Positions 22,112 through 63,939 of a stretch of 64,000 bases of DNA are shown here, piece by piece (the stretch's first letter is position 1; every line of letters starts with the position of its first letter). The stretch is from Heptranchias perlo (taxonomy: Eukaryota), in assembly GCF_035084215.1 (NCBI RefSeq), contig NC_090332.1:89466001-89530000 (forward strand), read 5' to 3'. Under the pieces are notes generated by a model that ran no database searches, was not told the DNA's origin, and saw nothing but the letters and a program-made list of their open reading frames with translations. The translations under genes and the position numbers were made by a program.

Positions 22112-22486
22112 AGGAAATTCCAAATTAAAACAGAAAATGCTGGAAACAGGTCAGGCTGCGTCTGTGAAGAGAGAAACAGGTAACGTTTCAGGTCGATGGC
22201 CTCTCATCAGAACTGTAAGAAGTTAGAGATTTAACGATTTATAAGTAAATACGGAGCCAGGCAAAAGGTGGTAGGGGTGGGGGGAGGAAAGAACAAAGGG
22301 GAAGGTCTGTGTTTGGGTGGAGGGCAGGAGTGATTAAATGACAAAAGGGATGATGGTGCAAGTCAAAAGGGGATGGTAATGGGACAAGTAAAGTGGGTCT
22401 AGAGGAGCTGTAAATGGCAACAGGAGAACCATTACCATCACCCGCTGTCCGAAAAAATGGGAATCACTTTGCTACTTGTCCCATTG
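22112..22486 (-). mobile_element. Penelope-like element terminal fragment
   Basis: AAAACAGAAAATGCTGGAAA...TCTGTG...GAAACAGGTAACGTTTCAGGTCG, homologous to 49392-49700. Contains a hammerhead core. Confidence 0.8.
22178..22214 (-). ncRNA. Minimal type I hammerhead ribozyme motif
   Basis: Minus strand AGUU-CUGAUGA-gAGGccaucgaCCU-GAAA-CG-UU-ACCU. Core intact, one mismatch in stem I. Confidence 0.7.
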
Positions 22487-23508
22487 AAAATAATAGGACT
22501 GATTTAATACAGAACTGGAGACTTGGACCTCAGTAGCTTGTTACATATTGTAATCTCCATTAAAAGCTCTCTTGCTGTGCCAGGCTGGTGAATTTGGATT
22601 GGCAAAGCAAGGCACAGAAGATAAGACTTCTGCAAATCTGGTCCTTTAATAGCAAAGATTAAAAGAAATAACAAGCTTAAGATATACAAAAACTAAGAGT
22701 AGCTTTAATTATCACAAACATCTTCGCAGTTCCGATTTAATTGGCAAGGCTTAAACAGCTTGAAGAAAAATGGAAAATGAGATATGAATTTCCCATCTGC
22801 CTTGAAGCCACCTCAATGCAGCCATCCTGTTTTTAGCTTCTATTTTATAACCTTGCCTCTTTTGAACCCATTTCTAAAAAGCAAACCATAAGAGGAAGGA
22901 AAAAGAGGGAGACAGAGAGAAAAGTTATAGACAGCATTAAAGCAATATTCCAAGTTTGCTATTTCAAAGACATAAATCAATTGCTTACTTTTCTACTCTG
23001 TCTGCACATTATTGTAGAAGTATCTCATCACACACTTGTAAGGAGGAGGGGGCAGGAGATGCAAGGTCCTAAAACATTAGTATCCATCCACTTTGATCAT
23101 CTACAGTGGGCTGAGTTGCTAAAAGTTTGAAGAATATTAGCCCTAATCAGTAGCAAATAAAATCCTTTTTTCTAAAAACAACGAGCTGGAAGATGCATGA
23201 AATCCTCTTATCCACGATATGGATTTCTATCTTTTGTAATATGTGCATCTGAATTATGTTTTTGAATAGTAAATCTGCTGTATTGCTTTAACAGTAATAG
23301 TTTATGATCCTAAATGCAAAGCTAAGACCACAAAGAGAAAACATATAATAGAAAGGTTACTGAGATTTTAACTACTTAATGTACAGAAAAATAACTTGGA
23401 GTCCTGCGCATAAAATCACTCCCAGCTTCTCCACAATTCTGAAAGTATTAAAACACAGCGACATGAATAAATATACATCATTAACAATCTCTGTATTGAC
23501 AAAGTCCT

Positions 23509-24001
23509 GAGCCCTGATTATAACTGGGGGGGGGGCAAGTGTGGGGTCAATAAGTCGAGCATTAAGCTCACTGACAGGAGACCCGGGACATTATAACCCC
23601 CAGGCCATCATTTAAATGTTAGCCCTGACTCCCGCCCTAACCCGTCAGTGAGGTGGCACTGGCGGGCATGTGAGTGTGGAAGGAGACCGCTGCCGGGAAC
23701 CGGATGGAATGGTCCCCGGCAAAGGTAGGTCTGGAGTGGGGTTCCCAAGGCGATCGCGGGGAGGGGAGGGAAAATAGCCAGTAGGCAATCTTTCTAAAGC
23801 TTATACGGAGACCTGGTCCCATTCATCTAGGATCAATAGTCAAATCCACACCGGCAAATTGAGTGAAGACCCGCTGTTTACGTTGCTGGTTAAGTGGGTC
23901 CACCCAAAATCAATGGAATGAAAATCGTGCGGGTTCTATAAAGGCAGGTGATTCACTCCACCAGATTACTGCCCAGGTGGTGAAGATCAAAACGGACCCC
24001 C
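23509..24001. mobile_element. Decayed Harbinger-type MITE
   Basis: GC-rich block from GCCCTGATTATAAC to GATCAAAACGGACCCC, similar in architecture to the other MITEs here. Confidence 0.45.
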
Positions 24002-24077
24002 ATACTTATTTTTTAAATGTGCAGTTTCACACTCATACATCCAAAGTACAGCCAATGCTGCATGTATTTATCAAACG

Positions 24078-24145
24078 CGTGTGCGTGTGTGTGTGCGTGT
24101 GCGTGTGTGTGCATATGTGCGTGTGTGTGCACAAATAGTGTGTAC
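24078..24145. repeat. (TG/CG)n microsatellite
   Basis: Directly visible. Confidence 0.9.
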
Positions 24146-24563
24146 ACATTTTCTGCCACTTCAAATTGATCAACCAAAGTGGATATCAGCTGAATTGGAA
24201 GTCTAAAGTGGGTGGGAGTGTACTGGATTTAGTTCAAGAGATAACTAGGATATGTTATAAAATCTACAGATAGAACACGGAAATATGTCTTCACACAATC
24301 AAAGAACAATATGCTATATAAGTAGAAATAAATGCTGGAAACATACTGCAGGTCATACAGAGTTATAAAAAGTAGGTTATGTTTTGTGTACACACTTTTT
24401 GTGAGAACAGGACACTGGGTGATAAGTAAGCCCTTTTATACAAAGAGGGCTGCAGATGGTGACACCACTAATCCCGGCCAGAATGGAGATGATTGGGTAA
24501 TTCCCCCATCAATCACACTGCTGTAAGTGACTGGGATTGATTTTACGCACATAATTTGTATTC

Positions 24564-25706
24564 TGTAACTATCAGCCACTCACTGCACTTTTCTGGTGAA
24601 GTCACCCTGCTTTTATCATGAATGGCAGATGGAGTTTAATTTAGATAAATGTGAGGTGATGCATTTTGGTAGATCGAATCGGGCCAGGACCTACTCCGTT
24701 AATGGTAGGGCGTTGGGGAGAGTTATAGAACAAAGAGATCTAGGAGTACAGATTCATAGCTCCTTGAAAGTGGAGTCACAGGTGGATAGGGTGGTGAAGA
24801 AGGCATTCAGCATGCTTGGTTTCATTGGTCAGAACATTGAATGCAGGAGTTGGGATGTCTTGTTGAAGTTGTACAGGGCATTGGTGAGGCCACACTTGGA
24901 GTACTGTGTACAGTTCTGGTCACCCTATTATAGAAAGGATATTATTAAACTAGAAAGAGTGCAGAAAAGATTTACTAGGATGCTACCGGGACTTGATGGT
25001 TTGACTTACAGGGAGAGGTTAGACAGACTGGGACTTTATTCCCTGGAGAGTAGGAGGTTAAGGGGTGATCTTATAGAAGTCTATAAAATAATGAGGGGCA
25101 TAGATAAGGTCGATAGTCAAAATCTTTTCCCAAAGGTAGGGGAGTCTATAACGAGGGGGCACAGATTTAAGGTGAGAGGGGAGAGATACAAAAGGATCCA
25201 GAGGGGCAATTTTTTCACTCAAAGGGTGGTGAGTGTCTGGAACGAGCTGCCAGAGGCAGTAGTAGAGGCGGGTACAATTTTGTCTTTTAAAAAGCATTTG
25301 GACAGTTACATGGGGAAGATGGGTATCGAGGGATATGGGCCAAGTGCAGGCAATTGGGACTAGCTTAGTGGTATAAACTGGGCGACATGGACATGTTGGG
25401 CCGAAGGGCCTGTTTCCATGTTGTAACTTCTATGATTCTATGATTCTATGAAGTTGCTGTAGTTTCGGTCACGAGTTCCGTTTTGCTGCAGTTCGTATAG
25501 ACTCTTTTTAAATAGACTCTGTATATAGACTTTGTTTGCTTTGCTGTTTGCCGTGAGTCCTGTCATGAGCCCCGCCCCCAATTCATTGGCTGACGCAGTG
25601 CTGTCAATAGACCTTCTGTACAAAGAGAGAGAGAACAGCCAGTGAAGGTCACGAGTCAAGATAGTTCCTGTCCAAGGCAGGCAGCTGACGGGTTTATTGG
25701 GCTGCA
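24564..25706 (-). mobile_element. Solo-LTR-like element, copy 1, interrupted by CR1
   Basis: Starts TGTAAC. Segments 24564-24620 and 25450-25706 align to 33396-33725. The minus strand carries CCAAT, GC-box and TATTTAAA motifs. Confidence 0.55.
24617..25450 (+). mobile_element. Young 5'-truncated CR1 LINE (open ORF2 C-terminus, ~250 aa)
   Basis: WQMEFNLDKCEVMHFG...LVRPHLEYCVQFWSP...GYGPSAGNWD*, with an (ATTCTATG)n tail and ATGAA at both junctions. Confidence 0.95.
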
Positions 25707-26417
25707 GATAGATCTTTTAAAAAGGGTTGGAGTAGGCAAAAGCTGGTAGATGACCTCAGTAAGGCCATGCAAAGGGATTAAAGGGACAAAACGGAGTGAA
25801 AATGTGCAGTGAAAAGGCATAAGAATGATGCACAGACTGAGAAAAAGCTACAAAATAGAGGAGAATAGAAGTGAAAGGTAGATGGAAGAAACAGACAAGA
25901 AAATGGGAAAGACAGTTACGGTCTGGGTTTGCTAAAGTCAGTGTTCGTACTGGAGGGCATATACTATACTAAATATTTGATGCGACAGCAGTGTCTAATT
26001 TTATATACAACTCATAAATTGCCACGTCTAAACTAAAATACATTGGAGTTGTATTTAATCAGGCAAAACATACAAGTCCACTTGACTGTAGCATTTAGTA
26101 GACTAAACAAATATGACCCTCTGTATAACCCAGGAAGAATCCCAAAAGAGTGGAAAGTCGTAGTAAGCAGCCACCATCAAACTGTTGCACACTGTTATTG
26201 GCATGCAAATGACACTCTGTCTTTGAATCCCAGCCAAAATCTGCTGTTGTATATAAGAGCAATTTCCTCAGGAATTTTCAGAGAATGTGATACTTTTCCT
26301 TTTATGTATGTATCTAGTAAAATGATTGGATAACTAGGCAGCACCAACACCTTTAAGAGAACCAAACAAAGCTGGTGATATGGGGCTGGCACACTGTGAA
26401 AAGAAATTCAGAAATTA

Positions 26418-26729
26418 GGGCCCCGATATTTACGGGGACGCGGTGGTCCGGAGAGAGAGGTCGTGGGGGGAGGCTGAAGGCTTCCTTGAGGAGATTGGGG
26501 GGGGCGCACTCCTGCTCCTCCTGACCCTCAGTGAGTGCTGAAAAAGACACTTACCTTATGGAGCTGGCAGCTCCCGTCTCCCTTTCACTGCTGGGTTTTC
26601 CCGAGCTCTGGGGTAAGAGAAGCAGTGGGTGTGTTGGGGACACGTTCCCCACATTTAAGTCTTTAACACCCGCCCCCCCCGCCGACCGTCTCCTGCCCGT
26701 TGTGGGGGGTGGGGTTAATATCCAGGCCC
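26418..26729. mobile_element. Harbinger-type MITE
   Basis: TIRs GGGCCCCGATATTT / AATATCCAGGCCC, flanked by TTA and ATA. Confidence 0.65.
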
Positions 26730-27185
26730 ATATGTTCAACTATCTTGAGATACGGTCTTAAAACAATTGTGCAAACTCTTCCAATATAAGAAAAATGCTT
26801 CTGAATTGCTCCTGTTTTCAAAATGAACCAGTATCGCTGGTAATAAGATATAATGAGCTAGTGAATTCCTTTACATTAGGTGTAATTGTGAATCACTATT
26901 GAAAATTACTATTTAATCATTATTAACTTTTGGAACATATCCATGGCTGTCCACACATCAGCATTATGAGATTTCAACAACCAATGAGGAAAACTGCCCA
27001 GTATAAAAGTCAGTATCGTGCACTGGCGTAAACTTTCAGACCAACCTGTGGCACTACCAACACGATCGGATGCAAATCACCACACTGGAAATGTGAAGCA
27101 ATTAGAAACATGACTATTGACAGAACTTTGTTAAGCAAGTTTTGGTTTCCTCCAGTTCAGAATTGCTCAAGTAGTGTTACAAATT

Positions 27186-27608
27186 ACATAGAATGTACAG
27201 CACAGAAACAGGCCATTCGGCCCAACTGGTCTCTGCCAGTGTTTATGCTCCACAGGAGCCTCCTCCCTCCCTACTTCATCTCACCCTATCAGCAGATCCT
27301 TCTATTCCTTTCTCCCTCGTGTGTTTATCCAGCTTCCCCTTAAATGCTTCTCTGCTATTCGCCTCAACTACTCCTTGTGGTAGTGAGTCCCACATTCTCA
27401 CCACTCTCTGGGTAAAGAAGTTTCTCCTGAATTCCCTATTGGATTTATTAGTGACTATCTTATATTTATAGCCCCTAGCTCTGGTCTCCCCCGTGTGGAA
27501 ACACCTTCTCTATGTCTACCCTATCAAACCCCTTCATAATTTTAAAGACGTCTATCAGGTCACCCCTCAACCTTCTCTTTTCTAGAGAAAAGAGGCCCAG
27601 CCTGTTCA
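27186..27608 (-). mobile_element. CR1 LINE 3' fragment
   Basis: Reverse complement of the FFTQRVVRMW region, and ACAGGCCATTCGGCCCAAC. Confidence 0.9.
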
Positions 27609-28116
27609 TTTTTTCAAACAGGGATATACTTGGAGATAAGAATCACTTCAGACCATGAAGGGTTAGAAATATAATACTATACAACCAGGTAATATGGATG
27701 CACAATCACCGCCCCGCCAATAAGTATCCAATACAAGCAGGTATTCTTCTGATATGAACAGCTGTCAGCACCCCCATGGAAAACAGATTACTGTACCTCT
27801 CAGGTTGCCTGGTCCTTACTGGATTACGAAAGATACCCTTCCACCGGTAGACAGACAAATTTCTAAAGATACTCCTGTTACTGCAGATCCAACTATATTG
27901 AACTCAGTGCAATTACAAGAACTAGCTGTATGCGTGTGCAGCTGGAAGAAACATTCCCCCTGGACACGCATGAAGCAAAAGAAGGACACAATTATTGCAC
28001 GGTATATGCAGTGGGGATCCAAAGTGAACTGAAGGGAGGTAAATAAGTATATTTTCAAATATACCTGAAATTACTAGATTAAGTCTCCTAAAAACAACAA
28101 CCTACATCCTCCCATT

Positions 28117-28509
28117 GAATCATAGAATCATAAAATGATGCAGTGCAGAAGGAGGCCATTCGGCCCATTGTTCCAATGCCGGCTCTTTGAAAGAGCTATC
28201 CAATTAGTCCCACACCCTCGCTCTTTCCCCATAGCCCTGCAATTTTTCCCCTTCAAGTATTTATCCAATTCCCTTTTGAAAGTTATTATTGAATCTGCTT
28301 CCACCGCCCTTTCAGACAGCGCGTTCCAGATCAGAACAACTCGCCGCGTAAAAAAGTTTCCCCTCGTGTCACCTCTGGTTCTTTTGCCAATTATCTTAAA
28401 TCTGTGTCCTCTGGTTACCGACCCTTCTGCCACTGGAAACAGTTTACCCTTATTTACTCCATCAAAACCCTTCATGATTTTGAACACCTCTATTAAACCT
28501 CCCCTTAAC
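28117..28509 (-). mobile_element. CR1 LINE 3' fragment
   Basis: FKIMKGFDGVNKGKLFPVAEGSVTRGHRFK...IWNAL, plus tail. Confidence 0.92.
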
Positions 28510-28997
28510 TTTTATATGTGCCATGTGCGGGATAGCATGCCACAATTACCCCTTAGTTATGGTATAATGTAGTGCACAAGAAGTTAAGCATTTCTTTAGT
28601 ACTTGTAGTACAGATGAATGCTGGACATTTCCCCTAACACTCATTTTTGCTAATTAGGATACAGCAAGTCAGCCAATTATATAAGTGGGGAAACAGGTGA
28701 GTGGGGAAATTTGCATATGGAATCACCACCATTCAAAGGAGCTAGCTGGTATGTGAGCCTCCTTCTTTTCCCAATTATATGTACCATAAACAAAGCCATG
28801 GCTGATCCAGTAGTATGAGCAAGTTTCATGGTGGCAGTGTGACTGATGTAAATTGGTTGTGTTTGTGTCATTTGTATAACAGCTGCTTCATTGCAATATT
28901 AACAGTGACAATTTCAAAATCAGTATCATGCCAAAAACAACAATAAGTTATCGTGGTTGTGTGACAAAAATGCAGCATAATTACAAGTTGTGCTTAC

Positions 28998-29098
28998 TTT
29001 AAAAGTCAGGCCTAATGTATTTTGACAATAAAAGTAAATATTTCCACTATTCAAAACTGGTCCATTTGGCACTACATGTTTATTAACAGTAACATTTT
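28998..29098 (-). CDS. Candidate 101-nt exon ((E)NVTVNKHVVPNGPVLNSGNIYFYCQNTLGLTFK)
   Basis: Acceptor actacgttacAG, donor AAA|GTAAGC, open frame with phase 1 in and phase 0 out. Confidence 0.3.
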
Positions 29099-29288
29099 CT
29101 GTAACGTAGTCCAACATTATCATATTCCTTTGAAGCATGAACAGTTTTAGATGTCATAAAGAAAAATGAGTGAAATCCAAATATTTATGATAAGAAGATA
29201 TTTCTGTCCATAGAATATTAAAGGAAGTTAGTTGGCACAAATGGAGAGATGCAGAAAAGCGATTTCATCCTGGTGAGGCGGGTAGTGA

Positions 29289-30733
29289 AAAGCTTTATAT
29301 ATGTAACGGTTGGATTTTCCACTTGGCATTAACTGGTGGTAATGAATTATTTCTCTGAAATTTTGCCGCACTCATGACAGATTGCACATAAACTTTGACA
29401 TCACTCTCAGGAATCACTGCTTCCATAACAGATAACCAAAAGTTAATGGTGACCAATATCGGCAACATTGCTGAGAAACCTTCATTGACTACATTCTGCC
29501 CTGATTGCCTATCACTGATGAGAGGGTATGTACTCACGATTTTTATGTGAATAAAACAATGAAAATGAAGGACAATATGCCTCTTTAATTTTGTGCTAAT
29601 ATTATTTGCAATTTGTCCAGAAGTTAAAGTGCTGCTGGATGTGAGGGGGAGTGAGTGAGCTTGAAGGGGACTGGGCAAGTTGAAGCTGGGGTTTGGGATC
29701 AGTGCAGGTGATTTGGAGGCACTCAGGTGGGAGAGGAGCTGGCTCTTGGTATCACTTTGAACGGACAAGAGATGGTTGGGAACTGGTGGCACTTAGGGTG
29801 CGAGGGGAGATTAGCAACTGTGAGCACTCAGCATGTAGGGCCACATGATGCCCTAAACTTTGCAAAAACACTGCCGTCCAAAAGAAAAAAAATGCATTGC
29901 CTTCTCACTCTCCTGTAGGTAGTCCATGGGGAAAAGTGAAAAAATTGCCGGCCTTGACGACAAAACGTCACTCATCTGATTGATACATCGGTGAACTGCA
30001 GATTGATTGATGTCGCTGATGTCTCCTGTGAGAGCTTGGAATGAGCCAAAAGCATAGAAGTTCAGGGACGTGGTGACCTTGACAATGCTGTCCCTGTGGT
30101 AGAGGTTGTCTGGAGGGCAATTTCCAACAGACAGCACAACTCTGTTGCTGCCTCTTGAGTGAAATGTAGCTATTCAGTTTTCTTCAGAATGCCGAAGTAG
30201 ATGTGCCTCTGCCTATAGATGCAGGTCCGTGGGTAACATCAGACGTGGGTCGACCACATCAGGTGTCATCTCATTTCCTTGCCAATTCTCCTCTCCCCCC
30301 CCCTCCCACCCCCTCTTCTACTTTCTCCAATTAATAGAATGAATGGAATTCTTGTTGGAATGCCCATATTACAAATTGTAAATTATCTGGGCCAAAACTC
30401 CTGGCTTAAAACCTACAAAAATAACCTAGCAAAAAAAAAAATAGCTGCCAAAATAAACAGAAACTAAAATCTGTACTGAAAAGGGGGTTTTACAAGTGCC
30501 TCCACTGTTAGACCCTGGCAGGGCAGAACGTAATAAATGAAGGCTTCTCAGCAATGTTGCCGATATTGGTCACCATTAACTTTTGGTTATCTGTTATGGA
30601 AGCAGTGATTCCTGAGAGTGATGTCAAAGCTTATGTGCAATCTGTCATGAGTGCGGCAAAATTTCAGAGAAATAATTCATTACCACCAGTTAATGCCAAG
30701 TGGAAAATCCAACCGTTACATATATAAAGCTTT
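29289..30733. mobile_element. Old Harbinger derivative bounded by 198-bp inverted repeats
   Basis: 29289-29486 and 30536-30733 are reverse complements with 2 mismatches. The interior holds a decayed transposase. Confidence 0.85.
29853..30240 (-). pseudogene. Highly decayed Harbinger transposase fragment
   Basis: VKVTTSLNFYAFGSFQALTGDISDINQSAVHRCINQMSD, the HTH region of HARBI1-like transposases. Confidence 0.8.
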
Positions 30734-30896
30734 GCACTTCCCGTTTGCGTCACGTGACACCCAGTTGCCACTTTTTTGTCAAGTTTTTTCCATTATAAAT
30801 TCCAATGTCCACAAATAATATGGATCTTGCCTATGTAAACTTGCTATACTGTAATTACACATACTGACCACTTGATAGTGTCGAACCCATTTTCTT

Positions 30897-31298
30897 TTAG
30901 CACTCTCACCTCTGACTCAGAATGTCATGGGTTGAAGTCTCACGCCAGAGACTGAAACACATAATCTAGGCTGACACTGAGGGAATGTTGCCTCTTTCAA
31001 TGGGACATTAAATCGAGGCCCCGTCTGCCCTCTCAGGTGGACACAAAAGATCACGTGGCACTATTCAAAGAAGAGCAGGGGAGGTGACCTGGCCAATATT
31101 TATCCCTCAGCCAAAAAAACACACACATTACCTGGTCATTTTATTTCATTGTGATTTGTGGGACCTTGCTATCTTCAAATTTGCTGCAACATTTCTCTAC
31201 ATTATGACAATGACTACACTTCAAAAATAATTCCTTGGTTTTGGGATGTCCTGAGGTTGTGAAAGGGGCTATATAAAGCAAGATCATCCTTTCCTTCT
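30897..31298 (+). mobile_element. Older SacSINE1-like SINE
   Basis: AGCACTCTCACCTCTGACTCAGAA head, GGCCAATATTTATCCCTCA core and GAAAGGGGCTATATAAAGCAAG tail. Confidence 0.82.
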
Positions 31299-32518
31299 TA
31301 TACAACAGACTTGTTGTATAAACAAAAAGCTTCTTACAAGAGGGTACAATGACAGTTATTTGGGGTCTCTAGTTTCTTCTTAGCAAGTGAAAAATGCTGT
31401 CACCCACCTGGTTACTGGACATTTTTCACTGTGAAGATAAATCTCATGTTGGCATTTTACAGCACCTGATGGCAGAAACCTCAGTATTTAGCTTGAGCTT
31501 AACCAGCTCGATAGAGAGAAGAAGCAATAGTGTGGATCGGATATGCAAGGAGATCTGAGAAACACCTCCAACCTCAGTACTGTGATGGTGTCACAGTTAT
31601 TGGTGAAGGACCAGGAATTTTATTATTTCCGACCTGTATTCAAGCTTTTCCTACATTACAGGTACTGAAAAATATAAATGTTGCAGTGATTCGCTTTGCG
31701 GGGAATAGAGTTATGCTCAGTGTGTGAAGTTCAGACCACAGGCCGAGCCTCTACAAGCTGCTAATTGATGGCCACGACAGAAGGAGCAGGAAGCAACTTA
31801 AATGTTGGCAGAACATCACTCTTTTCATTTACTCTTGGTTCCCAAGTATGGCAGCACTACCTTTGAGGGAGTTAAAATAATAAAATAAGTAGAATTTCTC
31901 AGCAATTAAAATTATTGATTGCCTCCATTACCTTCTATAATTTCTTTACTTATTACTATGTAAGGTATATAATGTTCAGTATGTGATCGTATAATTATAG
32001 CAGCTTAACAGTAATTATAATAATTCACTTGGTGCTGGAGCTGATATTTGGCACTATGACAATGCAGTGACATTTGTTCTCAGATAGCCCTTTGACTCAT
32101 CGGAAACCTTGACATTTAAATTCTGCTGGCGTGAGATGCTGCTTTGAATTGTTTGAAGACGTTTCTTTATTGCTTCCCTGATATATTGGACCACTTTCTT
32201 TCTCTCTCCTTTTTTTATATTTGCAATAGTAAGTTTCCCTTTGCGTTGTTCACTGTGAACAGCGGGCCTTCCGAGCAGGACGGAACGAGCCCCCTCTCCC
32301 CCTCTTCCCCCCCACCCCCGCCTCTCTCATTTCAGGGTCTTCTCCTTCAACAGATTTCCTTTTCTCAATGGAATTCTGCCATTGGCCCCATTGCATTGGT
32401 CTTTTGAGTTGCGGAAAGCATTGCTCCGGGTTGAGACTGCCCAAAATCATTTCCTGAGGGATTCTTACAGCTTTCAAAGACAGGAGACTTTCATCCTCTT
32501 CCGGGCTGATTTTTCCCA

Positions 32519-32743
32519 GGATGTGGGCAAGGCCGGAGTTTATTGCCCAGCCCTAGTTGCCCTAAGAAGGTACCGATGGCCCTTCTTTTTGAACTGCTGC
32601 ATGTAGCAGTTTGATACAACTGAGTGGCTTGCTAGGCCACTTCAGAGGGCATTTAAGAGTCATGCACTTTGGTGTGGGACAGATAAGGAAGGCAGCTTTC
32701 CTTCCCTAAGGAACATTAGTGAGCCAGTTTTTACAGCAATCCA
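32519..32743 (-). mobile_element. Short non-LTR-derived repeat (CR1-group 3' end, internally deleted)
   Basis: GGATGTGGGCAAGGCC...TTTATTGCCCAGCCCTAGTTGCCC...TGAGTGGCTTGCTAGGCCACTTCAGAGGGCA resembles a common shark repeat (recalled, not searched). Confidence 0.55.
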
Positions 32744-32884
32744 ATGCGAACATGCCTAGAGTAGGAACATTACAAAGTGGATTGTGACGTAGTCTCAACC
32801 CAGAGCAGATGCTCCCCGCACCTCTAAAGACAAATTCAGTGGAGTCAATGGCAGAATTCTGTGGTGGGCATGCATAAACCTGGC

Positions 32885-33035
32885 ATAATTGTGTCCAATT
32901 CTAGGCACCAAACTTTAGGAAGGATGTCAAGGCCTTAGAGAGGGTGCAGAAGAGATTTACCAGAATGGTACCAGGGATGAGGGACTGGAGAAGCTGGGAT
33001 TGTTCTCCTCAGAGCAGAGAAGGTGAAGGGGTGAC
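32885..33035 (+). mobile_element. CR1 internal fragment
   Basis: CVQF*APNFRKDVKALERVQKRFTRMVPGMR. Confidence 0.85.
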
Positions 33036-33236
33036 TGGCTTTGGCCCTGATTATACATTCACTGCAATCTCCCACCTGTGCTGTATTGAAATTGGGAGAT
33101 CACAGGCAGGAAGCTAGTGTTTCCTGTGCTACTCCAGCACTTTGAAGGGCTGTGCCAGCCATTTAAAGGGAAGTGGCTGCTTCAAATGAACTACTGTATA
33201 TATTTTGAACCAACAAATAAAGTATCTGCAGAATTG

Positions 33237-38234: not shown

Positions 38235-38708
38235 CTCATCAGCAAACATCCCCATTTCTGACCTTATGATGGAGGGAAGGTCATTGATGAAGCAGCTGAA
38301 GATGGTTGGGCCTAGGACACTGCCCTGAGGAACTCCTGCAGCAATGTCCTGGGGCTGAGATGATTGGCCTCCAACAACCACTACCATCTTCCTTTGTGCT
38401 AGGTCTGACTCCAGCCACTGGAGAGTTTTGCCCCTGATTCCCATTGACTTCAATTTTACTCGGGCTCCTTGGTGCCACACTCGGTTAAAAGCTGCCTTGA
38501 TGTCAAGGGCAGTCACTCTCACCTCACGTCTGGAATTCAGCTCTTTTGTTCATGTTTAGACCAAGGCTGTAATGAGGTCTGGAGCCGAGTGGTCCTGGTG
38601 GAACCCAAACTGAGCATCGGTGAGCAGGTTATTGGTGAGTAAGTGCCGCTTGATAGCACTGTCGACAACACCTTCCATCACTTTGCTGATGATTGAGAGT
38701 AGACTGAT
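38235..38708 (-). mobile_element. CR1-group reverse transcriptase fragment
   Basis: ALDIKAAFNRVWHQG...GVPQGSVLGPTIFSCFINDLP...MFAD. Confidence 0.9.
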
Positions 38709-47300: not shown

Positions 47301-48948
47301 GGGAGTGAAGAGGGTGATCGGGAGGGGGAGTGATCAGATCAGGAGTGAAGAGCGTGATTGGGAGGGGGGTGATCAGATCGGGAGTGAAGAGGGTGATCGG
47401 GAGGGGGAGTGATCAGATCGGGAGTGAAGAGGGTGATCGGGAGGGGGAGTGATCAGATCAGGAGTGAAGAGGGTGATCGGGAGGGGGAGTGATCAGATCG
47501 GGAGTGAAGAGAGTGATCGGGAGTGGGGGGTGATCAGATCGGGAGTGAAGAGGATGATCGGGAGGGGGAGTGATCAGATCGGGAGTGAAAAGGGTGATCG
47601 GGAGAGGGGTGATCAGATCGGGAGTGAAGAGGGTGATCGGGAGTGGGGGGTGATCAGATCGGGAGTGAAGAGGGTGATCGGGAGAGGGGTGATCAGATCG
47701 GGAGTGAAGAGGGTGATCGGGAGGGGGAGTGATCAGATCGGGAGTGAAGAGGGTGATCGGGAGGGGGAGTGATCAGATCGGGAGTGAAGTGGGTGATCGG
47801 GAGGGGGGTGATCAGATCGGGAGTGAAGAGGGTGATCGGGAGGGGGAGTGATCAGATCGGGAGTGAAGAGGGTGATCGGGAGGGGGGTGATCAGATCGGG
47901 AGTGAAGAGGGTGATTGGGAGGGGGGGTGATCAGATCGGGAGTGAAGAGGGTGATCGGGAGGGGGGGTGATCAGATCGGGAGTGAAGAGGGTGATCGGGA
48001 GGGGGAATGATCAGATCGGGAGTGAAGAGGGTGAATGGGAGGGGGAGTGATCAGATCGGGAGTGAAGAGGGTGATCGGGAGAGGGGGGTGATCAGATCGG
48101 GAGTGAAGAGGGTGATCGGGAGTGGGGGGTGATCAGATCGGGAGTGAAGAGGGTGATCGGGAGGGGAGTGATCAGATCGGGAGTGAAGTGGGTGATCGGG
48201 AGGGGGAGTGATCAGATCGGGAGTGAAGAGGGTGATCGGGAGGGGGGTGATCAGATCGGGAGTGAAGAGGGTGATCGGGAGTGGGGGGTGATCAGATCGG
48301 GAGTGAAGTGGGTGATCGGGAGGGGGAGTGATCAGATCGGGAGTGAAGTGGGTGATCGGGAGGGGGAGTGATCAGATCGGGAGTGAAGAGGGTGATCGGG
48401 ACGGGGGTGATCAGATCGGGAGTGAAGTGGGTGATCGGGAGGGGGGTGATCAGATCGGGAGTGAAGAGGGTGATCGGGAGGGGGAGTGATCAGATCGGGA
48501 GTGAAGTGGGTGATCGGGAGGGGGAGTGATCAGATCGGGAGTGAAGAGGGTGATCGGGAGGGGGGGTGATCAGATCGGGAGTGAAGAGGGTGATCGGGAG
48601 TGGGGGGTGATCAGATCGGGAGTGAAGAGGGTGATCGGGAGGGGGGTGATCAGATCGGGAGAATCCTACCCCTCCCGGCTCCAGTTTTTAAAAAAACTTA
48701 TCCTTTTGTTGGCGGCCTGCAGGTGTCCCTTTAAGGATCGCTGGTTAGGTCGCATGTAGACCTGCTTATCAGGAACACAGCTGGCACGGCACCACTGCAT
48801 TCAGGGCAACCCAATTTCGGGAAGGAGCCTTTTACCAATATGGCAGGTGATGCACTTCCTGCGCTAAATATGGCCGCCCACCGTGTTGGACACTGAGGTA
48901 CTCGTTTTATGCCTGTAAATGAGCGCAGCATCAACGGATTTCATGGTC
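41356..48948. mobile_element. Harbinger-type MITE hosting the satellite
   Basis: Runs from GGGAGTGAAATTGG to CGGATTTCATGGTC (degenerate TIR), with a GC-rich non-coding body on both sides of the array. Confidence 0.55.
41598..48660. repeat. ~7-kb tandem array of a 39-40-bp G-rich unit (~178 copies)
   Basis: Unit GTGATCAGATCGGGAGTGAAGAGGGTGATCGGGAGGGGG(G), directly visible. Confidence 0.99.
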
Positions 48949-49451
48949 ACTATTTTTCAATTGACATCTTAAACTGAGACATTGTCTGTCTGTTCAGATG
49001 AACGCAAAAAAAAAAATCACATGGCACTTTTCAAAGAAAAGCAGGGGGTTTATCCGAACTAACAATCATCCCTCCATTAAAAATAGGTTAACTGGTCCTC
49101 CCTCTAACTTGCTGTTTGTGGAATCTTGCTGCACGTACAATTGGCTGCCAGATTTGCCTACGTTACAACACAGACCAAACGTCAAAAAAGTAATTAATTG
49201 GACGTGAACCTTTTTCAGACATCCTGAGAATGTGATACGGCATTATGTAAATGGTAACACTTTCTTTATGTACTACTAATGTGAAGCTGCTGTTCTCGAG
49301 TCTCACTTATTCCCACTTTTTTGGCTGCTAAACAGAAGTTAACACTAATAGGAAATCACAGTAAGACCACTAACAGTTCGACATTTTAATAAAAACAGAA
49401 AATGCTGGAGAAGCTCAGCAAGTCAGGCAGCGTCTGCGGAGAAAGAAACAG

Positions 49452-49489
49452 AGTTTAACGTTTCAGGTCGAAGACCTTTCTTCAGAATT
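49452..49489 (-). ncRNA. Minimal hammerhead ribozyme motif
   Basis: AAUU-CUGAAGA-aAGGUC uuc GACCU-GAAA-CG-UU-AAACU. Core and stem II intact, stem I imperfect. Confidence 0.7.
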
Positions 49490-49822
49490 GGAAGAAGTTC
49501 AAGATTTGACAGTTTTTAAGCAAATGCAGAGCCAGGGGGAAGGAGGGGAGGGGAGGAAAGAACAAAAGGGAAGGTCTGTGATAGGGCGGAGGGCAGGAGT
49601 GATTAAATGACAAAAGGGATGATGGTGCGAGGCAAGGAGGGCGGGAATGGGACAAAAGATGGGTCTAGAGGAGCTGTAAATGGCAACATCAGAACCATTA
49701 TCTGCCGTCCACCCTATCAGATCCTTCCATTTTGTTCTTTCCTCCCCCCCCTTTCCTCCCCCCCCCCCCCCTTTCCCTGGCTCTGAAATTGTTTGAAAAG
49801 TGTTTAATCTTCAATTTCTTCC

Positions 49823-49859
49823 AGTTCTGACGAAGGATCATCGACCTGAAACGTTAACT
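49823..49859 (+). ncRNA. Minimal hammerhead ribozyme motif
   Basis: AGUU-CUGACGA-AGGaUCaucGACCU-GAAA-CG-UU-AACU. Stem I perfect, core intact. Confidence 0.78.
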
Positions 49860-52419
49860 CTGTTTCTCTCTCCACAGATGCTGCCTGACCTGCTGAGTAT
49901 TTCCAGCACTTTTTGTTTTTATTTCAGATTTCCAGCATCTGCAGTATTTTGCTTTCGATCCACATTTTAATAGTTCCAATCGTTGTGCAAAATTGTCACC
50001 TTGCCATAAAGCAATTTCAGTCTACAATAGGATTTGCTCCTACTTGAATTTTTCTGCCTTACCTTTTTATACCGCGGCTAAATTTTGCTTTGAGTGCAAT
50101 TTCCAGCTCTGAGTGTAAATGTGTGCTCCAGTGCTGGTTACACCTTTTATGGTTGGCACAATTGCATTAGATTAGGAAAAACACTAGCAAATTGACTTTC
50201 TTAAGGACTAAGAATTGAGCCAAATTGTTTTTAATTGTTTGCCATAGTTCTGGTTCTATTGTCTTTCCACAATGTTCTTGGCCAGGAATTTTCTGCATTC
50301 CGATGAAGTTATGGTAGTTCACTCGAGCAGCTCTGAGAATATTCCCATCCCATGTCATTTTCAAATTTAGCTGGGGTCTTTGAGTCAGGATCTGGCTACT
50401 AAGAGTGGGGTTGTGAATAGACGCCATTAATACTACCGAGATCTTTTCCCAGTTTTCCTCAGTTGCACAAAGAAATTCCTCATCCTCATCCTACACCTAA
50501 ACTCCCTTAGCCCCCTCTCCTCTGACTCCTCTGCCCTCCTGTCCTCACTCATTCTCACCCTTTACATAAACACTCCCACTCACAATGCCACCTACAAATA
50601 TAGGAATTCATTATGGGGGTGTGGAGCTAAGCAGCATTTTCACACTCTACACAGAAGAGAAATATATTTCTCTCTGTGGAAATATAAACATACTTAAGTC
50701 CACATCAATCCATGAATGAAATGAACCACTTTGATATTTGTAGCAAAAGTTACCTCCTGCTGCTTAATTACAAATGCAATGGACAAATCCACACATTTGC
50801 AACGTAGGATAATAATCAGCTTGATTCCATTCTAAAAGGTGCAGCACAAACACCCAGAGTAACCAAACAAAGCACAATGTTAATGAATCGAGGTTGATCA
50901 GGAGAAGTTAGCACTAAGTTAACACATACTGACACAACCCACTCAACTCGACCATGTTGTACTAGATGGAATCACAGATGTGATTTAATCCAGTCTGAAT
51001 GGTCTCCTATATTTGTTCCACACCACCTTTCTGAATTTGCAACACGTCCAAAAGGATAGCTTCTCTGTTCTGTCTTGTGGGACCGTCTGGACCTCCTTCT
51101 CAATCTTACTCATTGGCCCTTCCCCACTGCACAGAATATGTGGGGTTAACTTGATTCTCTTTTCCTATTCCTCCAACAGTGCTACGGGTCAAGGGGGCTA
51201 ACTCTGTGATTCCTATGGGGTACGGCTGAGAGAAACCACTAGCATAGATCACACAGAGGCGCCAGTGACGAGATGATCTGTGCTATGCTCCCAGATATCT
51301 TCTCATTTAATTGCGTAGGCAGAATAAGAGAAGGGAATAATTAATTGTCACAGTTCAGGTGACTCTTTTCAAACATGCTACTCTAAAACAACTTAAATAG
51401 TATCTTTTGTAACATCACTTTATGTTCAGTCATTGTATTGTCGAACAAGATAAGCTCTTTACATTTTGTGTAATGCTGTGGAGTCTATAATTATCCCACT
51501 GCACTTATACTGCACTGTACATATTTGGTTAATGACTTCATGTTACACCGCCATCCTGAAAGTACTCCTCAAATTTAACGACATCAGTTCCTACACCTTC
51601 TGTCCAGAGTGTGAAGATCTTCCTCAATTTATGGTTCACAGTCAGAGTCCCTCATTGGCCTTTTTATGTCTTCCATCTTCTTTGAGCTGCAGATATGATT
51701 AAAATGCACGATACATACTCATCCTCTGCTCCATCTCCCAGACCAAAGGGATAGCATTCGAGCAATCTTCTCCCATGTATTCTCTCTCTCTACAGGAACA
51801 GGTAGTCCCGTGTTTAATTCTACAAAACCCATTTTCTTTTTGTGCTTTTCCCAGTAATGAGGCCCAATCTCTGCATCGTAAAATTGAGATTCTGCCGCCT
51901 GTACGTAATTTGAGCATAACTGAGCATAAATAGCATTTCTGCTTCCAATCTGTTGGAAAAAAAATGCCTTTTGTATATTAAATGAGGGGAGCTACTTTCA
52001 GACAGTTGGGTAGAACGGCAATTTAAAAGGTTTGCAATAGTTTGTGCTGAAGTCAAACCGGCCACATTTCATCTCCATCACGTTTTAACTTATTTACTGG
52101 AGTAGCTTAAGCCATGTAATTGGAGGTAAGTCAAAGTCATTCAGATTTATTACTTTGATGAGTGGAAATGAGCCACTTGACCTACAGAATAATAGAATTG
52201 CAAATCAACTGAGCGGGATAGTAGGACAGCCAGGAAATCACACCTGAGAAGGTCACAGCCCAATTGTTCGAGCATCAAGGCAATGATGGCAGCACCTCAA
52301 CATTACACTCTGCTAAGGCGCATTAAACCATAAATAATGTCTGCTGTCTTTTTGTTAGAAATAAACAATATCAGCATAGTAATGCCCATAAAGGCTTAAA
52401 GTAATATACATATTAATCA

Positions 52420-56739: not shown

Positions 56740-57974
56740 GGGGTGAATTTTCACCTTTACAATCAGGCGGAAAATGGACTGTAACGGATCGGTCGCCCCG
56801 TTTACACCCACCCGATTTACACCCGCCCGATTTACACCCGCCCGATTTACACCCGCCCGATTTACACCCGCCCGATTTACACCCACCCGATTTACACCCG
56901 CCTGATTTACACCCCGCCCCATTTACACCTACCCGGTTTACACCCGCCCCGTTTACACCCCGCCCCGTTTACACCCCGCCCGTTTTACACCCGCCCATTT
57001 AAACCCGCCCCATTTACACCCCGCCCCATTTACACCCGCCCATTTAAACCCGCCCCATTTACACCCCGCCCCATTTACACCCCGCCCGATTTACACCCCG
57101 CCCGATTTACACCCCGCCCCATTTACTCCACGTTCCATTTACACCCTGCCCAATTTACACCCCGCCCCATTTACGCCCCACCCCATTTACGCCCCGCCCA
57201 ATTTACACCCCGCCCCATTTACACCCCGCCCCATTTACACCCTGCCCCATTTACACCCCGCCCAATTTACACCCACCCCGATTTACACCCCACCCCATTT
57301 ACACCCGCCCATTTAAACCCGCCCCATTTACACCCTGCCCCATTTACACCCCGCCCCATTTACACCCTGCCCCATTTACACCCCGCCCAATTTACACCCA
57401 CCCCGATTTACACCCCACCCCATTTACACCCGCCCATTTAAACCCGCCCCATTTACACCCTGCCCCATTTACACCCTGCCCCATTTACACCCTGCCCCAT
57501 TTACACCCTGCCCAATTTGCACCCTGCCCAATTTACACCCTGCCCCATTTACACCCTGCCCCATTTACACTCCGCCCATTTACACCCCACCCGATTTACA
57601 CCCTGTCCCATTTACACCCCGCCCCATTTACTCCATGTTCCATTTACACCCCGCCCCATTTACTCCATGTTCCATTTACACCCCGCCCAATTTACACCCC
57701 GCCCCATTTACTCCATGTTCCATTTACACCCCGCCCAATTTACACCCCGCCCCATTTACACCCCGCATTTACACCCTGCCCATTTACACCCCCAATTACA
57801 CCCCCCTTTTATCCCCAATTACACCCTGCCCCTATTTACACCCCCCCCCCATTTACACACCCCCATTTACACACCCCTATTTACACCCCCTCATTGTCAC
57901 CCTGCCCGATTTCTGTTTCCATTGAAGTCGATCCAATCCGCTACCGTCCACCGGTAAAAGTGAAAACTCATCCC
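56740..57974. mobile_element. Harbinger-type MITE hosting a minisatellite
   Basis: TIRs GGGGTGAATTTTCAC / GTGAAAACTCATCCC. Confidence 0.7.
56795..57890. repeat. 15-16-bp minisatellite (CCATTTACACCCCGCC)n, ~70 copies
   Basis: Directly visible. The unit drifts from CCGATTTACACCCGC at the left to degenerate copies at the right. Confidence 0.97.
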
Positions 57975-58455: not shown

Positions 58456-58595
58456 ATCATAGAATCATACAACACAGGAGGCCATTCAGCCCATCGAGCC
58501 TGTGCCGGCTCTTTGAAAGAGCTATCCAATTAGTCCCATTCCCCTGCTCTTTCCCCATAGCCCTGCAAATTGTTCCTTTTCAAATATTTATATCC
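58456..58595 (-). mobile_element. CR1 3' end
   Basis: ATCATAGAATCATA...GGCCATTCAGCCCATCGAGCC. Confidence 0.85.
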
Positions 58596-58827
58596 ACAAT
58601 ACACCAAACAAACCAGGATTGGCCTGGCCATTACAGGGTAGGCAGGAGAATCCACTACTATTGTTATTAGGCTAAAGCACCGACTGTAACTTTAAGTACA
58701 TGGATATTGGACTTAGTCTACCATGATCATGATGCACACCCTTTTGTTACACTAACTAACATTGCGTGCTATTTATAAAAAGAAAACCAAGGATGCTGGA
58801 AATCTAAGATAAAAGTGGCGATTGCTG

Positions 58828-59045
58828 GAGGGTTGTGAATCTTTGGAATTCTCTACCCCAGAGGGCTGTGGAGGCTCCGTCATTGAGTACATTCAAAACA
58901 GAGATTGATAGATTTTAGATATTAAAGGCATCAAGGGATATGGGGATGGTGCAGGAAAATGACGTTGAGGCCGAAGATCAGCCATGATCTTGTTGAATGG
59001 CGGAGCAGGCTCGAGGGGCCGGATCCTATTTCTTAAGTTCTTATG
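58828..59045 (+). mobile_element. CR1 3' end
   Basis: RVVNLWNSLPQRAVEA..., followed by the 3' UTR. Confidence 0.85.
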
Positions 59046-60882
59046 AAATGCACAGCAACTCGATCAGCATTTTGACAAAGTGTAATACCCAGATATTAAC
59101 CTCTTTCTCTTTCAGATCCTGATCAATTTTCTGTGCATGTCCAACATTTTCCATTTTTGACCAAGCTGGACACCTGCTTGTATACTGACCATGGCCAGAA
59201 ATGACTGCTGGTGATATCAGTGGCCATTGATATGACATTCCTCTACCTGCTATCTTAATGAGGCACTAACTCATTTATTTTAAATGGATTCAGGCCTCAG
59301 CTAAAACAGCACAGAAATACTGTAAGAAAAGTGCTCCCTGCTAAAACTGTCAAGAGTCATTTCTAGGCATGTAAGCTACCAATCCTGAACTCATTAAAAC
59401 ATGCTTTGCATTCAATGAGATAACTAGCAGGCAAGAAATTTCTTTTGTGCGCCATGTGAGGTGGAATTATAAATGCATTTATAAAGAACAGGTTCACAGT
59501 TTCACTGTACTTCGCATGGAGAGGAAATCTACCCCCAAATAGCATGAACACATTTCGCAACTAAGATACCGTGGCTCATCAGCCTGGTTGACGAAAAGCA
59601 ACATCAACATGTTCCAACAGCTAACCTAAGGAGCCCGCCTGAACCAGCTTGGTTGAAAGTTTAGTTTTAATCAAATCTATTTAAATGGCTCTCAGAGCAA
59701 TGAGTGTGCTCCTCAGATGGAAAGCTCAATCAGTACGTTGAGTGTCACTGAGAAAAGCTGCCTCAATTTAGAACTCCCTTTGTCTGAAGCTCTGTCTGTT
59801 TCACAAAATGGTAGGTCTTTAGAAAGCTGGAGGGGTTAGTCAGCGCTGGAAAAATGTAAAGCAGCGTGCTCAGAACTGTTTTGTCAATCAGGAGCAGTAA
59901 TGACAAGTGTCTACATGTGTTCAGCCGAACTTCAACTAAAATAAATTCTGTCATTTTACATTGGAGTGAATGAAAAGTGTTTCATCTTAAGAGGGATTTA
60001 ATCTGATCACATTTGGCTTTAAGTGGGTTCCAGCATAGTGTTGTTGTTAATCCTTTCAGCAAGTATTTGATCTGAGACGGAAGCCCTTGGTACAAGATTA
60101 AGACTGTTGTGCAATTATTCTTTTACCTGCTACACTTGCCTGCTAATTAATTCATTAAAACAAAATCTTTATTAATTTGCATTTGTTTTGTGCATATTTC
60201 ATTCACAATATGCCCCAAAGATGGATTAAATATCTTTCTCCTGAAATGAAGAAACACAGGACAATGTTAGCTTGAATGTGATAATGACAATGAAGAGGTT
60301 AATTTTCCTTTTATTACATAATAATTCACCGTTTATATTTTCCTATTCATCTAGTACGGATGCTTCATTATCTGCAAGCCTAATATCTGCCCTCCCAATT
60401 ATCCGCCAGAATTTTCACAGGACATAGCCTTGTGTGAGATGTCATCTCATTGCACAGCCGACTAATCTCTTCCTATCTGACATAAATCAAGCACACAGCC
60501 CAAGAAAGATTACATTCAATTTATGTTATTTGTATTACACTTATCGTCAATCCCTGTGCCTAGGGTTTTGATAGCCTAGAAATCTGATCGCACAAAAAAA
60601 ACAGGCACGTAGGGGATAGGGGGTCGGGGAGGGTGCAGGGGATGGGGACAGGGCGCAGGCTGCAAGTGCCTGTTCACGTGGACACGGGGACTACGTGAAA
60701 TTGGTGCTGCCAGCTCATTGTAACGGATGAAGTGTGCAGCCAGCGATACCCATGCTGTTTATTGGCTGCTCGTCTGTTTGGGGGGGGTGGTGGGTGGGGG
60801 CGGGAAATTGGGCCTCTCGGATGCCACTTAAAGCCAGCACCTTTTAAAGGGGAGGTTCACCGTGGCTGCAAAAAAGAGGGGA

Positions 60883-62330: not shown

Positions 62331-62370
62331 TCTCCAAGGCGGAGAAGATGGTACAGCCCCCAGAATGAGT

Positions 62371-62838
62371 AAAAGAAAGACTTGCATTTATATAGTGCCT
62401 TTCACGAACTCAGGACATCCCGAAGAGCTTTACAATCAATGAAGTACTTCTTTTTTGAAGTGTAGTCACTGTTGTAATGTAGGAAACGCGGGAGCCAATT
62501 TGCGGACAGCAAGCTCCCACAAACATCAATGCGATAATGACCTGATAATCTGTTTTTTTTAGTGAGGTTGGTTGAGGGATAAATATTGGCCAGGACACCA
62601 GGGATAACTCCCCTGCTCTTCTTCGAAATAGTGCCACCGAATCTTTTATGCCCACCCAAGAGGGCAGACGACGCCTCGGTTTAACGTCTCATCCGGAAGA
62701 CGGCACCTCTGACAGTGCAGCACTCCCTCAGTACTGCAGTGGGAGTGTCAGCCTGGATTTTGTGCTCAAGTCTCTGGAGCGGGCCTTGAACCCACAACCT
62801 TCTGACTCAGAAGGGGGAGTGCTACTGAGTCAAGGCTG
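62371..62838 (-). mobile_element. Full-length SacSINE1-like SINE
   Basis: Reverse-complement match to 18553-19038. Confidence 0.88.
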
Positions 62839-62974
62839 ATGGAGAGATACAGATAGAGTATCCCCGAGAGATGGTATTACTGGTGTCAGAGATTCCTGAC
62901 GGGAGAGCCCAGCTGCAGCGTCCCTTGAGGTGGGGAAAGCCTCAAAAATAGTTTCAAAAATTCTAAGAACTCAT

Positions 62975-63402
62975 GTTACAGGGACAGGTTGGGTCGACTA
63001 GGCTTGTATTCCCCTGAATAAAGAAGATTAAGGGGTGATCTAATTGAGGTGCTTAAGATGATTGAAGGAGTTGATAGCGTAGGTAGAGAGAAATGATTTC
63101 CTCTGGTGGGGAGTCCAGGACAAACCTTAACATTAGAGCTCGGCCATTCAGGGGTGATGTCAGGAAGCATTTTTTTGCACAAAGGGTCAGGGAAATCTGG
63201 AACTCTCTCCCCCAAAAAGCTGTTGAGGCTGGGGGTCAATTGAAAATTTCAAGACTGAGATTGATAGATTTTTGTTGGGTGAGGGTATTAAGGGTTACGG
63301 AACCAAGCCGGGTAGATGGAGTTAAGATACAGATCAGCCATGATCTAACTGAATGGCGGAGCAGGCTTGAGGGGCTGAATGGCCTCCTCCTGTTTCTGTG
63401 TT
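62975..63402 (+). mobile_element. CR1 LINE 3' fragment
   Basis: RGDLIEVLKM...FFAQRVREIWNSLPQKAVEA. Confidence 0.9.
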
Positions 63403-63742
63403 GATCACCGGCAACAAAAAAAAATGATCCTAATTTGACAGATTCAGCACCGAAAGGCTGCAACTAGCATCATAGACTGTAGCAGGTGGTGTAGAGAGGG
63501 TGGGGTGGGTCCTCAGTCCTCAGATACGTTACCTGGATAGCACAGGGTAGGGGCTGGCAGTCAGCACCACTGTCATTTTTCCTGATTTACCATAGATTTT
63601 GACAAACATTTACTAAAAGCAATTTTCCTACCCAGCTGTTGATAGTTAATAGTCCTTACAGCTCCGACTAAAGTGTTATGGTATTTATCAACAGCTATTT
63701 TAAATTTACAGAACCTTTGTGCCTAATTTGATTATTTTCATG

Positions 63743-63939
63743 ATGTGGAGATGCCGGTGATGGACTGGGGTGGACAAATGTAAGGAATCTTACAACACCA
63801 GGTTATAGTCCAACAGTTTTATTTGAAAATCACAAGCTTTCGGAGGCTTTCTCCTTCGTCAGGTGACGAAGGAGAAAGCCTCCAAAAGCTTGTGATTTTC
63901 AAATAAAACTGTTGGACTATAACCTGGTGTTGTAAGATT
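63743..63939. mobile_element. Penelope-like foldback element with a 15-bp TSD
   Basis: 76-bp arms at 63786-63861 and 63864-63939 with one mismatch. TTGATTATTTTCATG at 63728-63742 and 63938-63952. Confidence 0.88.
63831..63865 (-). ncRNA. Minimal hammerhead ribozyme motif (second family)
   Basis: CAC-CUGACGA-aGGAG aaagc CUCC-GAAA-GC-UU-GUG. Stems I and II pair perfectly. Confidence 0.8.

Follow-up and report, generated by a model that had tools for sequence, protein, structure and literature searches.

We analysed a 64,000-nucleotide stretch of Heptranchias perlo DNA (contig NC_090332.1, positions 89,466,001 to 89,530,000; hereafter the window) and found that its four minimal hammerhead ribozyme motifs, c1 to c4, are very probably inert relics. 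They lie in three truncated insertions (I, II and III), which are likely terminal repeats of two Penelope-like retroelement families, with c1, c2 and c3 in family A and c4 in family B. Folding predictions suggest that three of the motifs are likely buried in fold-back hairpins; the fourth has damaged stems, and cleavage of host RNA by any of them is unlikely. An earlier note on this DNA had described four CUGANGA-stem II-GAAA-NN-UH cores. Our scan of the window found all four cores where the note had placed them, and refined their C3-to-H17 spans; the motifs fall into three insertions, not four. The insertions and motifs are as follows.

22113..22485, minus strand: insertion I, a putative family A terminal-repeat relic, truncated at its 5′ end, where it carries short inverted pieces
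22182..22210, minus strand: c1, minimal hammerhead with CUGAUGA, ACGU stem III and U17; core intact
49381..49391, plus strand: left copy of the 11-bp target-site duplication of insertion II; its last 4 nt overlap the end of the c2 arm
49388..49700, minus strand: inverted arm of insertion II, a family A relic 81% like insertion I
49457..49485, minus strand: c2, minimal hammerhead with CUGAAGA, ACGU and U17; stem II of 5 bp with A10.1-U11.1, stem I of 2 bp
49702..49955, plus strand: main arm of insertion II, a family A relic with a ~30-nt tail
49827..49855, plus strand: c3, minimal hammerhead with CUGACGA, ACGU and U17; stem I of 4 bp, stem II of 3 bp
49962..49972, plus strand: right copy of the 11-bp target-site duplication of insertion II
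63728..63742, plus strand: one copy of the 15-bp target-site duplication of insertion III
63743..63785, minus strand: 3′ tail of insertion III, 43 nt, on one side only
63786..63939, no strand: palindrome of insertion III, with arms 63786-63861 and 63864-63939 and a 2-nt centre
63834..63862, minus strand: c4, minimal hammerhead of family B with CUGACGA, AGCU stem III and U17
63863..63891, plus strand: dead mirror motif of c4, lacking C3 (inversion junction) and with A at G12
63938..63952, plus strand: other copy of the 15-bp target-site duplication of insertion III

All four motifs have an intact hammerhead core

We scanned the whole window for the pattern CUGANGA, 6-25 nt, GAAA, NN, U, H; the strict form added a stem II of at least 3 bp and a palindromic NN, and the loose form had neither. 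The strict pattern matched four times, compared with a mean of 0.013 matches per dinucleotide shuffle (n = 300; 296 of the 300 had none, and the maximum was 1). The loose pattern also matched four times, compared with a mean of 1.06 and a maximum of 5 in 300 dinucleotide shuffles. CTGANGA by itself was not enriched in the window (41 occurrences vs 44.6 expected), and an Rfam search gave eight matches at E≤5, none of them to a hammerhead family.

The core consensus C3 U4 G5 A6 N7 G8 A9, G12 A13 A14, A15.1, U16.1, H17 is present in all four motifs (consensus as described in PMC7151607, where U is allowed at H17). None of them has a loop 3, and hence none qualifies as competent to cleave as a monomer with its own stem III. 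H17 is U in every core, and U is among the slower bases at the cleavage site. Positions 15.2-16.2 are palindromic throughout, with CG in c1-c3 and GC in c4, such that AACGUU occurs in three motifs, rather than the two previously counted, and AAGCUU in c4 alone. These sequences are palindromes, as had been noted, but they do not form a 6-nt stem III; only the central 4 nt can pair, the first and last bases being core A14 and the cleavage-site U17.

The motifs differ in their stems. An extra unpaired nucleotide lies between A9 and stem II in c1, c2 and c4, and the best stem II of c3 uses none. G10.1-C11.1 is present in c4 only; c1, c2 and c3 have U at 11.1, which may reflect either decay or a family trait. 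Their own stem I is 4 bp in c3, 5 bp in c4, 2 bp in c2 and, in c1, 1 bp followed by a U-C mismatch and 4 bp. Stem II of c1 is 3 bp with A10.1-U11.1; c4, with 5 bp in stem I, 4 bp in stem II and G10.1-C11.1, is the best-formed motif. The best stem II energies were 0.0, -4.1, -0.5 and -3.6 kcal/mol for c1, c2, c3 and c4, respectively.

The insertions have the layout of truncated Penelope-like elements

There are two families, as had been proposed, and they are unrelated: outside the core they share only short matches, the best of them 8 nt (E 0.36). Family A copies are 74-81% alike by BLAST; with the C-run excluded, they show 15-19% difference across 176 gap-free columns. A profile search of the window found just three family A copies that span the motif, and in all three the hammerhead is at the same terminal-repeat position. 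The copies begin at differing 5′ points, as expected from truncation. An inverted, 5′-truncated copy abuts the 5′ end, in full in insertions II and III and as short pieces in insertion I, and there is a tail at one end only in insertion II (~30 nt) and insertion III (43 nt). Together, the layout, the one-sided tails and the motif features support the view, already put forward, that these are probably minimal type I hammerheads of the Penelope type.

Insertion I has inverted pieces at 22429-22439 and 22473-22485 that mirror 22372-22390; a search of its flanks found no target duplication. Insertion II consists of the c2 and c3 relics back to back as an inverted pair, flanked by an 11-bp direct repeat, a length reached by 2 of 500 random flank pairs. 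The two arms are 78% alike by BLAST, c2 and c3 are 370 bp apart on opposite strands, and the tail (about 49926-49955) lies on the c3 side only, with no mirror in the other arm. We also observed that the arms (49388-49923) differ by 15% (27 of 176 columns) despite the perfect 11-bp duplication around them. The chance of this combination with a single template is ~0.16, and hence two template RNAs may have been involved, though one would suffice.

The duplication flanking insertion III is longer; none of 500 random flank pairs reached even 14 bp. Its arms are complementary at 75 of 76 positions, and the mirror of c4, in effect a fifth motif, fails the hammerhead core consensus. We found no partner for c4 with a matching palindrome anywhere in the window. 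The inversion point of insertion III (63861-63866) coincides with the beginning of the hammerhead core. Here, 3-4 bases of the stem I arm approximately match the complement of CUGA, and the inversion may have arisen by template switching at that microhomology. Rfam microRNA matches at 63805-63920 were set aside, being below gathering scores and reflecting the palindrome.

In a DNA run from a relative, the summed contig depth over family A positions 22312-22367 was 1.5 million at 22367, compared with 11-16 for single flank contigs. This points to family A being very abundant, although summed depth is not a copy number. Over c1, the relative's DNA run is swamped by family copies, such that orthologous conservation is unreadable there. 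Exact-pattern searches of viral and metagenome contigs gave no match to either family. We found no published account of family A or B in the literature searched, although the supplements of PMC4209133 and 10.64898/2026.07.22.740005 may list them. Two candidates for older, core-eroded relics resembling family A, at ~24315-24420 (minus strand) and 59083-59160 (plus strand), scored 53.5 and 50.5, within the range of 47.5-61 for 12 shuffled queries; the score of a possible old family A-like relic at 58775-58830 (minus strand) was likewise inside the shuffle range. We therefore did not use these candidates as evidence for decay of the core.

Three of the four motifs are predicted to be buried in hairpins

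We assessed access to the cores with nearest-neighbour energy predictions, which leave aside core tertiary contacts, proteins and ADAR editing. The region 49370-49960 has a predicted fold of -300.7 kcal/mol (z -19.3), and the palindrome hairpin at 63760-63965 a predicted -134 kcal/mol (z -25.6). The unpaired probability of the stem III bases was 0.00 in c2, c3 and c4, compared with 0.35 in c1 (450 nt of flank), and the predicted cost of freeing the motif was 42.8, 51.7 and 53.0 kcal/mol for c2, c3 and c4, compared with 5.1 kcal/mol for c1, the sole core outside a long hairpin. Antisense c3 lies ahead of c2 on the minus strand, and pairing is predicted between c2 and antisense c3 and between c3 and antisense c2; we would thus expect c2 to be paired to antisense c3 in any minus-strand transcript. 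Since the antisense arm comes first on each core's strand, c2, c3 and c4 are all predicted to fold into hairpins during synthesis.

By analogy with published systems, two nearby motif copies in the parent elements would have paired through the 4-nt palindrome and swapped stem I arms as a double hammerhead, with cleavage likely helped by the element's protein, as the literature suggests. Retrotransposition would have left the 5′-truncated ends that we observe; at two of these, an inverted copy adjoins the 5′ end and a target duplication is present. Of the relics, c1 is free, but its stems are weak. If the region were transcribed, the likely product would be long double-stranded hairpin RNA, not cleavage.

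No host transcript was found in the window

The earlier note had assigned three of the four motifs to the strand of a candidate host pre-mRNA. We found no such pre-mRNA, and three of four motifs on one strand is at chance level (p 0.31); counting the dead mirror motif, the split is three of five. That c2 and c3 are one on each strand follows from their being an inverted pair by construction. For the host-gene scan, we searched Pfam with 150 stop-to-stop frames from lists of 532 (at least 45 amino acids) and 521 (at least 38 amino acids, outside self-repeats). Only a DDE transposase at 12214-12816 (plus strand) and a reverse transcriptase (RT) fragment at 38232-38549 (minus strand) were above curated cut-offs. 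None of 18 further frames or candidate exons, some of them repeats of the first set, was above Pfam cut-offs, although short exons, or exons in frames outside these sets, may escape this search. Splice-site scans with weight matrices from general knowledge found no coherent exon chain in the window, and three homology tools applied to candidates found no host exon.

Three host exon candidates, all on the minus strand, were rejected: 50170-50490 had no homologue, 16490-16693 had no usable match, and the three matches of 4475-4705 were spurious, being to repetitive proteins (Ig-like, RCC1 or no confident domains). The last of these candidates is a 76-codon open frame with an inverted paralogue, 67% alike, at 2474-2725 (plus strand). 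It may resemble the C-terminal part of a Penelope RT, a similarity for which we found no database support.

Sequencing runs were not used as evidence of expression. Placement of 4 of 23 runs was limited to 13300-33200, which covers c1 and leaves c2-c4 outside, and all were contigs, which do not reveal RNA ends, and were swamped by repeats. None of the 15 listed contig joints had splice-type ends (a further 7,628 joints were unlisted), and bins 17284-17947 and 22596-23259 were uncovered in all three runs guessed to be RNA; neither result was counted for or against expression.

Pairing between dispersed copies is predicted to be weak

We enumerated dimers as stem I helices plus stem III between two copies, allowing one mismatch or bulge. 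The c1:c2 dimer has four stem I pairs, with a bulge, at one site and a single pair at the other, with a predicted energy of +2.0 kcal/mol. The remaining dimers were predicted at -2.7 (c1:c1), -2.7 (c2:c2), -3.7 (c3:c3), -2.0 (c1:c3) and -18.7 kcal/mol (c4:c4), and c4 is unable to form both sites with c1 or c2. The c1:c2 dimer thus ranks last in stability among the five family A pairs enumerated (c2:c3 was outside the set) and lies 17.6 kcal/mol above two folded monomers. All computed pairs, including c4:c4, are 9-18 kcal/mol above the folded monomers, indicating that the model penalises every hammerhead and that only the ranking is meaningful. At a c1-c2 distance of 27,275 nt, the random-coil effective concentration is 0.03-0.14 micromolar. 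Dimer cleavage has reportedly been described by Lunse et al. The proposal that the dispersed AACGUU pair forms a latent intronic self-cleavage system is unsupported by these data: the host transcript was not found, c2 is predicted to be buried (42.8 kcal/mol), and the c1:c2 dimer is the weakest.

Assessment of the inert-relic interpretation and its alternatives

Several observations weigh against inert Penelope-like relics. No RT or GIY-YIG frame adjoins any copy among the frames scanned by Pfam at the copies. Penelope membership hence rests on structure, and the three insertions are too short to contain an RT plus GIY-YIG open reading frame. The motif c1 is not buried in a hairpin, and factors outside the energy model could loosen the c2/c3 hairpin, the arms of which are 78% alike. 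Unmasked base skews on the plus strand (T-A -0.012 ± 0.007; G-C -0.017 ± 0.009) are compatible with a minus-strand transcript; each is under 2 standard errors, and the sign changes between quarters of the window. Lastly, none of 11 family A core columns is variable, compared with 34 of 141 flank columns (Fisher p 0.055), which mildly favours constraint. The p value is 0.033 for the core vs the upstream flank alone and 0.15 vs the downstream flank, and 8 of 24 other motif columns are variable among the three family A copies. The comparison of core and flanks proposed in the earlier note is therefore borderline in its favour, in a test of three copies from two insertions in which constraint on the parent element is inseparable from constraint after insertion. 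The stems, which are needed for cleavage as much as the core, are decayed in the family A copies.

The chance that the four motifs are accidental matches is very small. CTGANGA is at chance level, the loose pattern hit five times in one of 300 shuffles, Rfam returned no hammerhead match, and no motif of the four, when folded in isolation, is more stable than its shuffles at z below -2; however, the strict pattern matched four times vs 0.013, the matches are at one homologous position with the extra features published for this class, and the motif recurs in two unrelated families, although the three family A copies are not independent. It is unlikely, though less extremely so, that the repeats are non-autonomous hammerhead retroelements (retrozyme monomers or SINE-like (short interspersed element-like) repeats) mobilised by Penelope proteins, which would be equally inert. 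Such an origin would be consistent with the lack of a coding frame attached to any copy and with the derivation of animal retrozymes from Penelope terminal repeats, one chondrichthyan among the hosts reported, at a mean consensus of 363 bp (10.64898/2026.07.22.740005). By contrast, no array in the window is a head-to-tail tandem holding the motif, the arrangement that marks active non-LTR (non-long-terminal-repeat) retrozymes; an inverted copy with a one-sided tail is a described form of Penelope insertion (PMC8557442), and the differing 5′ starts of the family A copies fit truncation.

Two alternatives retain cleavage. According to the earlier note's model, c1 and c2 on one minus-strand pre-mRNA pair through ACGU, and the double hammerhead cuts the intron. 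Both cores are intact and share ACGU, one site forms a 4-bp stem I with a bulge, and the core invariance (p 0.055), the weak minus-strand skew and the existence of intronic hammerheads in amniotes (PMC6155905) all point the same way. Nevertheless, we consider this model highly improbable, given the predicted 42.8 kcal/mol needed to free c2, the single stem I pair at the other site, a dimer 17.6 kcal/mol above the folded monomers and the worst of five family A pairs, an effective concentration of ~0.03-0.14 micromolar, the lack of G10.1-C11.1 in either copy, a strand split at chance level, and the poor cleavage of even intact tandem dimers (PMC4209133). Residual cleavage in trans, with free c1 pairing with other family A RNA and a Penelope protein helping at a low rate, is also improbable. 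It would draw on the accessibility of c1 (5.1 kcal/mol), on the 5 + 5 stem I pairs, with a mismatch, of the c1:c1 dimer, on the presence of family A in contigs of the three RNA-guessed runs (summed depth ~2,800-3,800 at 22367, other copies included) and on the protein assistance shown for an Anolis element (PMC11167929). However, stem II of c1 is at 0.0 kcal/mol with A10.1-U11.1, c1 as a substrate always has a U-C mismatch one base pair away from the core, and the Pfam frame scan found no intact Penelope frame in the window.

Comparison with published systems

The minimal hammerhead (min-HHR) of metazoan Penelope-like elements was defined by Cervera and De la Pena (2014, PMC4209133), who described an extra base after A9, a highly conserved though not absolute G10.1-C11.1, and palindromic positions 15.2-16.2. 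Most copies in their survey were single and dispersed, and others formed opposite-strand pairs separated by 100-700 bp; the monomer was inactive, and dimers and trimers cleaved weakly. They screened for copies within 50 kb, indicating that pairing at a distance was already considered there. Like the min-HHR, the motifs described here are type I, with no loop 3, a palindromic 15.2-16.2, an unpaired base between 9 and 10.1 and a short stem I, and they occur as single scattered copies and one close opposite-strand pair (c2/c3). Unlike the min-HHR, family A lacks G10.1-C11.1, and stem II is 3-5 bp, compared with 7-8 bp in Schistosoma. The hosts named in the main text portions of PMC4209133 are fishes, coelacanth, Xenopus and reptiles, not sharks.

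Craig et al. (2021, PMC8557442) described Penelope-like insertions with 5′ truncation, an inverted truncated copy and a tail of 30-40 bp at one end, and called the function of Penelope hammerheads unclear. Truncation, an inverted copy beside the 5′ end and a one-end tail (their Figure 2 legend) are shared by the insertions in the window; these differ in consisting of terminal-repeat pieces only, with no open reading frame and no partial tandem, and in the 43-nt tail of insertion III. The PAc Poseidon element of Anolis carolinensis (PMC11167929) is likewise a vertebrate Penelope-like element with a hammerhead in its terminal repeat. In that account, the hammerhead did not cleave in the absence of the element's protein, and no RNA-seq read ends were reported at its site. 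PAc is intact and cuts only with its own protein, whereas the copies here are decayed and no such protein was found in the window.

Animal non-LTR retrozymes (PMC7229834; 10.64898/2026.07.22.740005) are also type I, work better as dimers and are kin to Penelope terminal repeats. Active ones are head-to-tail tandems of a few hundred bases, unlike the copies here, which are inverted or kilobases apart. Tandem retrozymes were reported in one chondrichthyan and are depleted in Xenopus introns (10.64898/2026.07.22.740005); in the whale shark, 30% of Penelope-like elements are within introns (10.1101/443036). Intronic hammerheads of amniotes, in RECK, CTCL and DTNB (reviewed in PMC6155905), are type I like the motifs in the window, which are possibly intronic. 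The amniote motifs are few-copy and conserved across species, with tertiary contacts, whereas ours are minimal motifs in multi-copy, decayed repeats.

Other features of the window

About a third of the window matches itself. A 7-kb G-rich tandem array at 41598-48661 has 177 copies of a 39-41 nt unit, with 93% matches and a GC skew of 0.77, and a 1.1-kb array at 56794-57889 has 70 copies of a C-rich 15-16 nt unit. Inverted repeats of 225 bp, 97% complementary, surround 1,015 bp at 29279-30743, likely a non-autonomous DNA transposon. A perfect 100-bp inverted duplication at 18133-18485, with 153 nt between its arms, is either a recent rearrangement or an assembly feature. The DDE_Tnp_4 transposase fragment at 12214-12816 (plus strand) lies within a GC-richer block (~11400-15500), likely a Harbinger-type transposon, with a 170-base run of N at 13008-13177.

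Implications

Families A and B join a class that has been known since 2014. An insertion in the usual inverted form is predicted to keep its motif silent, an effect left out of account when hammerheads are counted across genomes. A further reading, to which we give little credence, is that the inverted copy serves as a safety catch in antisense: working cores would persist in genes mainly when their own mirror arm buries them, whereas free ones would be lost or suffer decay of their stems. It is based on the burial of three of the four motifs, including the best-formed one, and on the decayed stems of free c1. On the other hand, inverted copies arise normally in Penelope insertion (PMC8557442), and three insertions cannot show selection. 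Such a safety catch would imply low-level cleavage of host pre-mRNA by free relics, either in trans or aided by a Penelope protein, and this cleavage would shape where a very abundant repeat can sit. Were either this idea or that of the earlier note correct, a very common repeat would be breaking pre-mRNAs unnoticed in genomes with long introns, and the function of Penelope hammerheads would become testable from strand and context bias alone.

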